From positions 701 through 64,700 of the forward strand of contig DASUNQ010000027.1 of NCBI GenBank assembly GCA_036277075.1: DNA of 64,000 nucleotides. Direction: 5' to 3'. Under the pieces are notes generated by a model. The model was not told the DNA's origin. It saw only the letters and a list, made by a program, of their open reading frames with translations, and did not search any database. Below, in pieces: positions 35,413 to 36,852 of the stretch. Position numbers and translations under genes: made by a program. This stretch comes from Thermoanaerobaculia bacterium. Its GTDB lineage: Bacteria; Acidobacteriota; Thermoanaerobaculia; Multivoradales; UBA5704. How positions within the stretch are numbered: position 1 is the first letter of the stretch; each line of letters opens with the position of its first letter.

Positions 35413-36852
35413 TCAGTTCACGCAGAGGACGCGCGAGACGACCCCCCTCCAGCCCCGCGAGAGACCGATGATGTATCGGTCCGGCCCGCACTCGCCCCTC
35501 CAGTCCCCCGGCGACCAGTCGTGGTCGAGCGTCGACTCGGAGCCCGGTTCCGCGCCGCTTCCGGATTCGATGACGAGGCTGCGCGCGTTGGCCACGCTCG
35601 CGTTCAAACCGGACGCTTTGCAGCAGACGATCTTCGCCAGCTCGCCGGCCGGCGTCTGGGACACGCCGAAGACGTACTCGTCCTTCTCGCAGGTCGTCTT
35701 CCATTCGTTCGGCGCCCAGTCCTCGGCGGGTTTCATGGTCGCGGCCTGGTGGTCGCCGGGGCCCGTTTCCTTGACGTAACAACTGGTCGGCTGGAATTTC
35801 CCCGGCCAGTCGTTGCGGCACTGGACATTGCGCGCCATGTACGCGTTGTACTCGGCGTAGTCCGACCAGACCGATTTGGAGATGCCGGTCATCGGCTGGC
35901 CGAGAGGGCAGGTCGCCTTGTACTGGCCCGGCGCCCAATCCCAGCCGGCGGCCTGACCGGGGAGGTCCTTCGTGTACCGGCTGTCAGAGCGATAGAACGA
36001 GCCCACCGCGAAGTTCGTGTTGAACAATCCGTAGATGTACCTCGCCGCCCAGGGCTGGGCGTCCTCCAGCGCTTCACGGGCCCGCGCCAACGTGATGCTC
36101 AAGGGAAAGTAGCGGTCTCCGAGCCAGGATAGCCCGTACGGGTTGGCGCCCGTCTTCTCGTTGTACACATCGCGGGTCACCTGGACCAAGGCCCACGACG
36201 CGGTGTCGTAGCGCTGTGGCGGCCAGATCTTGAATCCCCAGAGGGTTGTCCCTGTGGCGAACCGGCTGGTGTCTTTCCAAGGGAAATGGTAACGCTCGGA
36301 AATTTCCTTCTCGATTCTGGCGTGTGCGTCGCCGATGACGTTGATCACGTGCATCGGTTGGGACAGGTCGGTGACGTAATGGAGGGCGAGCCCAAGCCAG
36401 AAACAATCGCCGTTCTCGCGCCAGACCCCGATGTACTTGTCCGCTTGCTCGCGCGCGTTGTCGTGATGGTAGCGGTTGGCGCTGCGGGCGTTGAAATGGT
36501 TGTCGTACGGCCACCCCTTGGGATGGTTGGAGTTCCAGAAGTGGGTCCCCTCGGCGCCGTTGGGCGAGCCGTTGTCCACGTAGCTGGAGCTGGTGTCGGC
36601 GCGGTTGAGGCCTTCCATCCACCGGTTCTTGCACGTTTCGTCACGCCGCATCTTGGCAAGTGCGGCCTGCGCCACCGGGCGGGTGCCGAGTGTCACGATG
36701 AGGTCCAGCGCGCGGTTCACGATGTAGAGGTGAGAGTTCCCCGCCTCCTCCGTGTACCGGTCGTTGGCGGTGTTCCAGGCCGCCGCGTTCGCCGACACCA
36801 GGCAAGCCGCGACACACAGCCCTCCCGCGAGAGCCTTCGCGTTCATCTTCAC
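35413..36852 (-). CDS. plc: Zinc-dependent phospholipase C (alpha-toxin / B. cereus PC-PLC family) with C-terminal triple Cys-repeat extension, 479 aa, lower GC
   Basis: Signal peptide. The mature N-terminus W-NTANDRYTEEAGNSHLYIVNRALDLI parallels the B. cereus PLC WSAEDKHKEGVNSHLWIVNRAIDIM (Trp1 and His zinc ligands). LGLALHYVTDLSQPMHVIN matches the second zinc-ligand block. GC is about 55-60% against about 72% nearby. Confidence 0.8.
   Translation of the reverse strand: MKMNAKALAGGLCVAACLVSANAAAWNTANDRYTEEAGNSHLYIVNRALDLIVTLGTRPVAQAALAKMRRDETCKNRWMEGLNRADTSSSYVDNGSPNGAEGTHFWNSNHPKGWPYDNHFNARSANRYHHDNAREQADKYIGVWRENGDCFWLGLALHYVTDLSQPMHVINVIGDAHARIEKEISERYHFPWKDTSRFATGTTLWGFKIWPPQRYDTASWALVQVTRDVYNEKTGANPYGLSWLGDRYFPLSITLARAREALEDAQPWAARYIYGLFNTNFAVGSFYRSDSRYTKDLPGQAAGWDWAPGQYKATCPLGQPMTGISKSVWSDYAEYNAYMARNVQCRNDWPGKFQPTSCYVKETGPGDHQAATMKPAEDWAPNEWKTTCEKDEYVFGVSQTPAGELAKIVCCKASGLNASVANARSLVIESGSGAEPGSESTLDHDWSPGDWRGECGPDRYIIGLSRGWRGVVSRVLCVN

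Follow-up and report, generated by a model that had tools for sequence, protein, structure and literature searches.

A predicted exported zinc phospholipase C, joined to an undescribed disulfide-rich triple-repeat module, is encoded by a strain-variable gene of a Thermoanaerobaculia bacterium

Within a 64,000-nucleotide stretch of the Thermoanaerobaculia bacterium assembly GCA_036277075.1 (contig DASUNQ010000027.1, positions 701 to 64,700; hereafter the window), we analyzed a minus-strand gene whose 477-amino-acid product is probably a two-domain exported enzyme, in which a zinc phospholipase C (PLC) domain with a three-zinc site is followed by a triple-repeat module that serves in binding or targeting, the whole being specified by a strain-variable accessory gene. 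While the enzyme class is known, the architecture, a zinc PLC combined with this module, is new. An earlier note, made from the letters of the window alone, had placed an alpha-toxin-type zinc PLC in an open reading frame (ORF) at 35413-36852, and the ORF list indeed holds a minus-strand frame of 479 codons at this location; reading the sequence directly, we determined that the true start is the ATG at 36846, which lies 5 nt after a strong Shine-Dalgarno sequence, AAGGGAGG. The product is 100% identical to a protein annotated at NCBI as hypothetical, from a metagenome-assembled genome (MAG) of Thermoanaerobaculia, a class within the Acidobacteriota.

The assignment of the catalytic half draws on three kinds of comparison with known structures. 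In a phmmer search of the Protein Data Bank (PDB), the best match was the Bacillus cereus PC-PLC (E=4.4e-11 over amino acids 29-218), and a two-sequence profile, built from this protein and its only close relative, P0002, returned the same enzyme at 6.7e-10 along with Listeria PlcB at 1e-4. Furthermore, hhalign aligned the domain to B. cereus PC-PLC (97.8%, E=8.5e-13) with 38% identity over 120 columns. The sequence blocks quoted in the earlier note, namely a tryptophan after the signal peptide, NSHLYIVNRALD and LHYVTDLSQPMH, are all present. In these alignments, H39, D84, H102, H156, D160 and H166 of the window protein, all invariant in P0002, occupy the columns of H14, D55, H69, H118, D122 and H128 in B. 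cereus PC-PLC. For H142 and E146, the motif H175-A-R-I-E179 (HARIE), which is kept as HAAIE in P0002 and begins a predicted helix, is a candidate counterpart if the preceding loop is 5 residues shorter. At least seven of the nine metal ligands are conserved. We therefore retain the likeness to B. cereus PC-PLC that the earlier note had proposed; its likeness to Clostridium perfringens alpha-toxin we did not recover, as no clostridial alpha-toxin chain was among the PDB matches at E<=10 by either phmmer or the profile search. Taken together, these comparisons indicate that the catalytic domain is a divergent zinc PLC of the PC-PLC/PlcB type that falls outside the curated Pfam model. A pair of cysteines in this domain, C72 (36631-36633) and C148 (36403-36405), is kept in both homologues and may form an extra disulfide.

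The N-terminus carries a predicted Sec signal peptide, in which the hydrophobic sequence is followed immediately by A-A-A and Trp24, an arrangement that is also kept in P0002. In the zinc PLC family, we take the mature chain to start with a tryptophan whose amine and carbonyl bind zinc (1AH7). Removal of the signal peptide after Ala23 would thus make Trp24 the new N-terminal residue. A lipoprotein reading of the sequence LAGGLC was rejected, as it is a poor lipobox and its cysteine is not kept in P0002. Once outside the cytoplasm, the module would acquire its disulfides; the tri-zinc domain, if its chemistry follows that of the family, would cleave the glycerol-phosphate ester of phospholipids to release diacylglycerol and a phosphorylated head group; and the module, as a binding or targeting unit, would tether the catalytic half to a surface or to a polymer.

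The C-terminal repeats are strongly supported by statistics. Pairwise alignments of the three repeats gave z scores of 9.3, 6.9 and 19.0, and none of 500 shuffles reached the observed score; the repetition is also visible in the DNA, as three 41-nt copies (family D1). The three cysteine- and tryptophan-containing repeats claimed from the letters alone are therefore real, and so is their position in place of the PLAT domain of alpha-toxin: Pfam detected no PLAT domain in the protein, and amino acids 292-477 match a triple-repeat family hidden Markov model (HMM) end to end (E=1e-52, HMM positions 6-174). A possible fourth repeat at amino acid 346 (DWPGKF...C) was rejected because it aligned with z scores of only 1.0-1.8 and corresponds, in the family alignment, to a linker strand with its linker cysteine.

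To characterize this family, we searched 1.84 billion cluster representatives (50% identity) exhaustively with HMMER, taking the two available C-termini as the query. The search yielded 484 cluster representatives at E<=1e-3, of which 159 were also found at E<=1e-10. By comparison, a word-indexed protein search is insensitive, the module profile having retrieved only two proteins with it, a result that is not evidence of absence. The matched unit comprises about 165-175 amino acids and usually forms the extreme C-terminus, although it also occurs near the N-terminus, internally or in duplicate. Long tandem arrays of the repeat unit are possible as well, for one protein of 1,926 amino acids (P0131) contains about 14 stretches that match repeat 3.

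An alignment of 30 modules defines the consensus GDWDxGxYKGEC...(E)YVAGVS...HAILCC, in three repeats of about 35-45 amino acids whose joining linker strands contain one cysteine each, and a D-W...K-x-E-C motif is conserved in every repeat. In a set of 97 modules, phi is 1.00 for the co-occurrence of the repeat 1 cysteines (C21-C45) and 0.97 for that of the first linker cysteine with the second cysteine of the following CC. This co-occurrence implies disulfides within the repeats and from each linker to the next repeat, that is, a ten-cysteine framework of three intra-repeat and two linker-to-next-repeat pairs, in which the connectivity is derived from covariation only. The module of the window protein is about 30-37% identical to other family members and, in repeats 1 and 2, has T in place of the E of K-x-E-C. 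Eight of its ten framework cysteines are present, for which the disulfides C313-C343, C356-C409, C386-C408 and C453-C475 are predicted; the second linker cysteine and the final cysteine are both absent, here and in P0002, a joint absence seen in no other of the 97 modules. This pattern fits a coordinated loss of one disulfide.

The structure prediction that the earlier note had proposed gave a confident result. With the 30-sequence alignment, AlphaFold2 produced an all-beta model (predicted local distance difference test score, pLDDT, 91.3; predicted template modelling score 0.88) with 4+4+3 strands that follow the three repeats, and the same fold was reproduced in a run with the full-length protein. 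A Foldseek comparison with 350,542 PDB chains returned nothing at E<=0.001 (best E=2); jacalin-like beta-prism lectins appeared in its output only at TM scores of 0.14-0.20, and the model did not superpose on the known three-fold beta lectin folds, the beta-trefoil and the beta-prism I (jacalin-like) fold. A profile search of PDB sequences with the module likewise found nothing, and in a viral structure library there were only borderline matches, to uncharacterised giant-virus proteins.

We determined the partner domains of the module by scanning 95 full-length carriers with Pfam and NCBIfam, and found the module itself to be covered by no model of either collection. Its partners are most often Neprosin (8), Phi_1 (5), CHAP (5) and Peptidase_S8 (4), and further include PA14, FG-GAP, PI-PLC-X, Sortilin/BNR, M57, trypsin, astacin, papain (C1), RicinB, B_lectin, xylosidase, lectin-like bacteriocin and phytase-like phosphatase domains. 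Among the named carriers are a Myxococcus "protease B / zinc-dependent metalloprotease" (WP_176436423.1), an S8 peptidase of Dojkabacteria (MBN2100746.1), proteins of Polyangiaceae, and a phosphatidylinositol (PI)-specific phospholipase C of Duganella (A0A6I2KZ70), which has PAN domains in addition to the module. The novelty claimed for the repeat thus holds in one sense and fails in another: it is covered by no entry of Pfam, NCBIfam or the PDB and the separate search of the C-terminus matched no named domain, but the module is not unique to this protein, its family comprising 484 clusters or more at 50% identity. The C-terminus is therefore a copy of an undescribed, widespread family and not a one-off invention.

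Scanning 185,579 species genomes with a back-translated motif, we identified 26 loci, all 26 of which were confirmed by the HMM (E 1e-20 to 1e-88). About 19 of these belong to Myxococcota and three to Acidobacteriota; the others include one Dojkabacteria genome, one unclassified Proteobacteria MAG (L016) and one genome labelled Comamonas. In the last of these (L021; BNCN01000022.1, labelled Comamonas sp. KCTC 72670), the module is found on an M57-like metalloprotease and scores 85.7 bits against the window module by phmmer, compared with 86.4 for a Pyxidicoccus copy and 80.2 for a Corallococcus copy; contamination, mislabelling or transfer may account for the Comamonas label. The modules from the Acidobacteriota MAGs (L014, L018 and L024) form a subtype without the first linker disulfide. 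Two of them, those of L014 and L024, are attached to a conserved N-terminal domain of about 250 amino acids, which L018, with a low-complexity upstream frame, does not have. Among the 150 best representatives and the 26 genomic carriers, only the window protein and P0002 combine the module with a zinc PLC. Hence the module is common, while its fusion with a zinc PLC is rare, with two examples in the databases searched. Neither the module nor any PLC from Thermoanaerobaculia was described in the literature that we searched.

That the gene is a strain-variable accessory gene became apparent from a metagenome contig, L028, that we found through the neighbouring DinB protein. Six genes are collinear between this contig and the window, with amino acid identities of 94% for the ORF at 39131, 93% for recQ, 94% for dinB, 88% for the gene of an NFACT-R domain protein, 78% for an ABC-2 permease and 87% for an ABC ATPase. 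Its DNA is 93% identical to the window up to the dinB stop codon, and its dinB stop codon is separated from that of the NFACT-R gene by 5 bp, without a PLC gene in between. Since a syntenic, ~93% identical relative lacks exactly the PLC gene, we consider the gene accessory. Besides the PLC gene, the indel segment comprises the leader with its Shine-Dalgarno sequence, a 4-nt spacer and the final 7 NFACT-R codons. The NFACT-R protein ends in ...AQPSKGGGAAGG in the window (35385-35408) and in ...AQPAKS in L028 (3316-3330); the indel junction thus lies within its last codons, and the C-terminus was changed. Identity between the window and L028 is 91-97% up to the left junction, at the dinB stop, and 68-80% in the 130-200 nt beside the right junction, which fits a rearrangement that disturbed the end of the NFACT-R gene. 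Around the indel we found no flanking direct or inverted repeats, mobile-element genes, tRNA or Rfam element.

Relatives of the complete protein are few. The word-indexed search returned the protein itself and one relative only, and nothing with the N-terminal half alone, results that reflect its limited sensitivity and not absence; a scan of the genome collection with the N-terminal alignment gave no confirmed relatives. The only other PLC copy, P0002, is encoded on Logan contig SRR31724261_323368 (L001), at 77% nucleotide identity and on a contig with 63% GC. Directly upstream of this PLC gene, at positions 198-223 of the contig, a 26-nt segment matches the 3' end of dinB (DPHLPTW-stop, compared with DPHFP(D/T)W-stop). 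It agrees with the dinB tail of the window or of L028 at 19-20 of 26 nt, the best match in that contig, with a null probability of about 1e-3 to 1e-4, and L001 has no dinB reading frame. A fragment consisting of a dinB tail and the PLC gene hence occurs in two different contexts, which means that the dinB-PLC junction predates the split of the two PLC genes or that the fragment was transferred in one piece.

The composition of the gene had been the principal argument for a foreign origin, with a GC content given as about 55-60%. Our recalculation does not bear out this figure: GC is 0.649 for the gene and 0.613 in its lowest 400-nt window, compared with 0.7225 for the whole window. The gene nevertheless has the lowest GC of the 35 ORFs in the window, and its codon adaptation index (CAI) of 0.61 is 1.8 standard deviations below the mean of 0.75 (standard deviation 0.08), which is low but overlaps other genes. 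However, the GC expected from the protein composition and host codon usage is 0.672, so that about two-thirds of the deficit is due to amino acid composition, and GC at third codon positions (GC3), at 0.874, is within the host range (window mean 0.91, standard deviation 0.046). Thus, the proposed check of windowed GC and codon adaptation confirmed low values for both and found host-like third positions, and the composition argument for foreign origin is weak.

Several points weigh against the reading of the protein as an exported tri-zinc PLC with a binding module. Neither PF00882 nor any NCBIfam model matched the protein or P0002 at E<=10, and PF00882 misses the N-terminal half alone as well; the separate search of this half that the earlier note had called for thus succeeded against B. 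cereus PC-PLC and PlcB in the PDB and failed against the curated family model. As the pairwise and profile evidence is strong, we interpret the miss as the sign of a divergent lineage beyond the reach of that model. The counterparts of H142 and E146 were assigned by motif only: the ungapped HMMER alignment puts a lysine opposite H142, and hhalign ends before this region. At the positions aligned with E4, Y56 and F66 of the B. cereus enzyme, which we take to be its choline-pocket residues (1AH7), the window protein has N, T and E, so that its substrate preference is not predictable from sequence. Members of the family have a compact all-alpha fold of about 245 residues that holds three zinc ions; the full-length AlphaFold2 model of the N-terminal half is mostly helices with pLDDT below 50, since only two sequences cover it, and is unusable for metal-site geometry. 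Finally, cleavage of the signal peptide and secretion through the outer membrane are steps that we infer from sequence, and binding by the module is a putative function. Zinc PLCs, S1-P1 nucleases and Het-C proteins have a common fold and metal-site signature (PMC3482391), and this relationship, together with the PF00882 miss and the altered head-group pocket, would allow the N-terminal domain to be a nuclease or another hydrolase of the PLC fold, of the S1/P1 or Het-C-like kind. We regard this as very improbable, since all significant matches are phospholipases C, no S1/P1 nuclease was among the PDB matches at E<=10, no Pfam S1-P1 or Het-C model matched, and the PLC-specific block NSHLxIVNRAxD is kept. 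With respect to the module, its position at the extreme C-terminus of most carriers, many of them proteases, a group that often has such extensions, could point to a domain for secretion, folding or latency (a propeptide or chaperone at the C-terminus) that the protein would lose once exported. This we consider unlikely, because the module also occurs near the N-terminus, internally, in duplicate and as an array of 14 stretches, and because its fusion partners include enzymes other than proteases as well as lectin or adhesion domains (PAN, PA14, RicinB, B_lectin, FG-GAP); moreover, it is predicted to be an independently folding, disulfide-stapled three-fold repeat with D-W...K-x-E-C kept in each repeat. 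N-terminal, duplicated or arrayed occurrence favours a modular unit for binding over a sorting tail. A role in binding or targeting is most likely for the module, given its promiscuous partners, its independence of position, its arrays, and an acidic-aromatic-basic constellation that is present once per repeat, as in multivalent lectins.

The history of the locus admits two explanations, which we judge about equally likely, each falling a little short of an even chance. Under one, the PLC gene was recently inserted here by horizontal transfer, the donor DNA possibly having been anchored by homology at the 3' end of dinB and joined illegitimately at the NFACT-R end. Such an insertion would account for the absence of precisely this gene from the ~93% identical relative, for its low GC and CAI, for the single other homologue being on a contig of different GC, for a junction that is sharp at the dinB stop and altered at the NFACT-R 3' end, and for the dinB-tail remnant that accompanies the other PLC copy without a dinB gene. 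Under the other, dinB and the PLC gene were already adjacent in the ancestor of this lineage, and a clean deletion removed the PLC gene from the L028 lineage; accordingly, the dinB-tail remnant is as diverged as the PLC genes themselves (73-77% compared with 77% nucleotide identity), as expected of an old junction, GC3 is ameliorated and insertion scars are missing. The two accounts are each burdened by what favours the other: GC3 in the host range, a largely compositional GC deficit, the lack of mobile-element genes, tRNA and flanking repeats, a host-like Shine-Dalgarno sequence and tight operon-style packing speak against a recent insertion, while low CAI and GC relative to the neighbours, the extreme rarity of the PLC gene and a second copy without an intact dinB speak against a loss. 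An outgroup that could polarize the change was not found, since the other DinB loci share no neighbours with this one, a gap that counts against the insertion account in particular. The horizontal acquisition proposed in the earlier note has therefore lost most of its GC argument to composition and host-like GC3, and has gained the finding that the gene is accessory.

In a more far-reaching interpretation, which we consider less likely than not, the module would represent an undescribed pseudo-three-fold, disulfide-stapled, lectin-like fold that targets lytic enzymes of predatory or competitive soil bacteria to prey or polymer. The window protein would in that case be a natural, convergent counterpart of alpha-toxin, in which domain fusion had turned a non-toxic enzyme of the PC-PLC type into a surface-attacking phospholipase. 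The soil bacteria using the module would then be Myxococcota, some Acidobacteriota and others. The family, with its 484 or more clusters, has no Pfam or NCBIfam name and no solved structure, and in predatory soil bacteria it recurs on phospholipases, proteases, glycosidases and cell-wall amidases; the ligand of the module would explain the targeting of a whole class of secreted lytic enzymes, and the module might serve as a new binding scaffold of compact size. With the catalytic half, the zinc PLC family gains a lineage that is divergent and invisible to the curated model, from Acidobacteriota, where such enzymes are essentially unstudied. Furthermore, the presence/absence polymorphism between two ~93% identical genomes offers a natural experiment on what the phospholipase does ecologically.

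Coordinates of the phospholipase C gene, its domains and its surroundings in the window
Feature	Position	Strand	Basis
Complete coding sequence, 477-aa protein	35413..36846	-	ORF list; ATG start with Shine-Dalgarno sequence; stop codon 35413-35415
Shine-Dalgarno sequence AAGGGAGG	36852..36859	-	5 nt upstream of ATG, 14 nt past dinB stop
Sec signal peptide, predicted, aa 1-23 (MNAKALAGGLCVAACLVSANAAA)	36778..36846	-	read from sequence
Zinc phospholipase C catalytic domain, putative, aa 24 to ~290	35977..36777	-	PDB phmmer, profile search, hhalign
Span of putative tri-zinc ligands W24, H39, D84, H102, H156, D160, H166, H175, E179	36310..36777	-	alignments, motif
Disulfide-rich triple-repeat beta module, aa ~292-477	35416..35973	-	HMMER family, HMM match, AlphaFold2
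Repeat 1, aa 303-343, DWAPGQYKATC...VQC	35818..35940	-	41-nt DNA copy D1 at 35908-35948
Repeat 2, aa 376-409, DWAPNEWKTTC...IVCC	35620..35721	-	D1 copy at 35689-35729
Repeat 3, aa 443-475, DWSPGDWRGEC...VLC	35422..35520	-	D1 copy at 35488-35528
DinB_2 family gene, upstream neighbour, same strand	36874..37473 (start approximate)	-	Pfam PF12867, E=2.7e-11
NFACT-R domain gene, convergent downstream neighbour	34965..35408	+	Pfam PF05670, E=8e-12
Indel segment, ~1.49 kb, compared with ~13 bp in L028	35385..36873	.	blastn, junction comparison

The flanking genes named in the earlier note as recQ- and dinB-like were identified by Pfam as RecQ and DinB_2. The PLC gene is in operon-like contact behind recQ-dinB, with 27 nt between the dinB stop (TAG at 36874-36876) and the PLC start, and on its other side the NFACT-R stop is 4 nt away from the PLC stop. 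Divergent from recQ, a cysteine-rich ORF of 195 amino acids at 39131-39718 (+) has a locally lowered GC of 0.67 and no Pfam match; it is 94% conserved in L028 and is probably a real gene. Farther away, a cluster of conflict- or signalling-type proteins at 9508-28073 includes two large TPR-CHAT proteins, at 9508-12822 (-) and 16982-20449 (+), a caspase-domain (Peptidase_C14) protein at 14851-17199, and two VWA-domain proteins at 20538-23231 and 26229-28073. In addition, two divergently oriented proteins of about 1,030-1,110 amino acids at 261-7499 contain Sortilin-Vps10/BNR repeats; they do not carry the triple-repeat module, although Sortilin/BNR is a partner of the module elsewhere.

Among known systems, B. 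cereus PC-PLC (1AH7, 2FGN) is the closest to the catalytic half: it has in common with the window protein the blocks NSHLxIVNRAxD and LHYxxDxxQPMH, the tryptophan that is predicted to become N-terminal here, the six aligned zinc ligands and a similar length of the catalytic domain. However, the two are only about 25-38% identical over the aligned core, the loop from H128 to HxxxE would be about 5 residues shorter in the window protein, no propeptide is apparent in the latter, and only the window protein has the conserved cysteine pair C72 and C148 and the C-terminal module of 185 amino acids. Listeria monocytogenes PlcB (8CQM), a single-chain tri-zinc PLC (PMC8634861), is the second family member detected, with a weaker match (E=1e-4); it is a single-domain enzyme activated by removal of a propeptide, and has no C-terminal repeat module.

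In its overall logic, the window protein is comparable to C. perfringens alpha-toxin (1CA1), in which an N-terminal tri-zinc PLC is likewise followed by an all-beta accessory domain. The C-domain of alpha-toxin allows the PLC to act on membranes, and variants without it cause no myonecrosis in a mouse gas-gangrene model (PMC8634861). While the toxin domain is a PLAT/C2-like, eight-stranded, calcium-binding sandwich, that of the window protein is an unrelated disulfide-rich three-repeat module, so that its role would be analogous, not homologous, to that of the membrane-binding domain of the clostridial toxin. The module has its three repeats in common with the rest of the family, together with eight of the ten framework cysteines. 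Its closest identifiable copies are those of myxococcal M57-type proteases, and in the Duganella protein A0A6I2KZ70 the module is partnered with a different, unrelated PLC fold.

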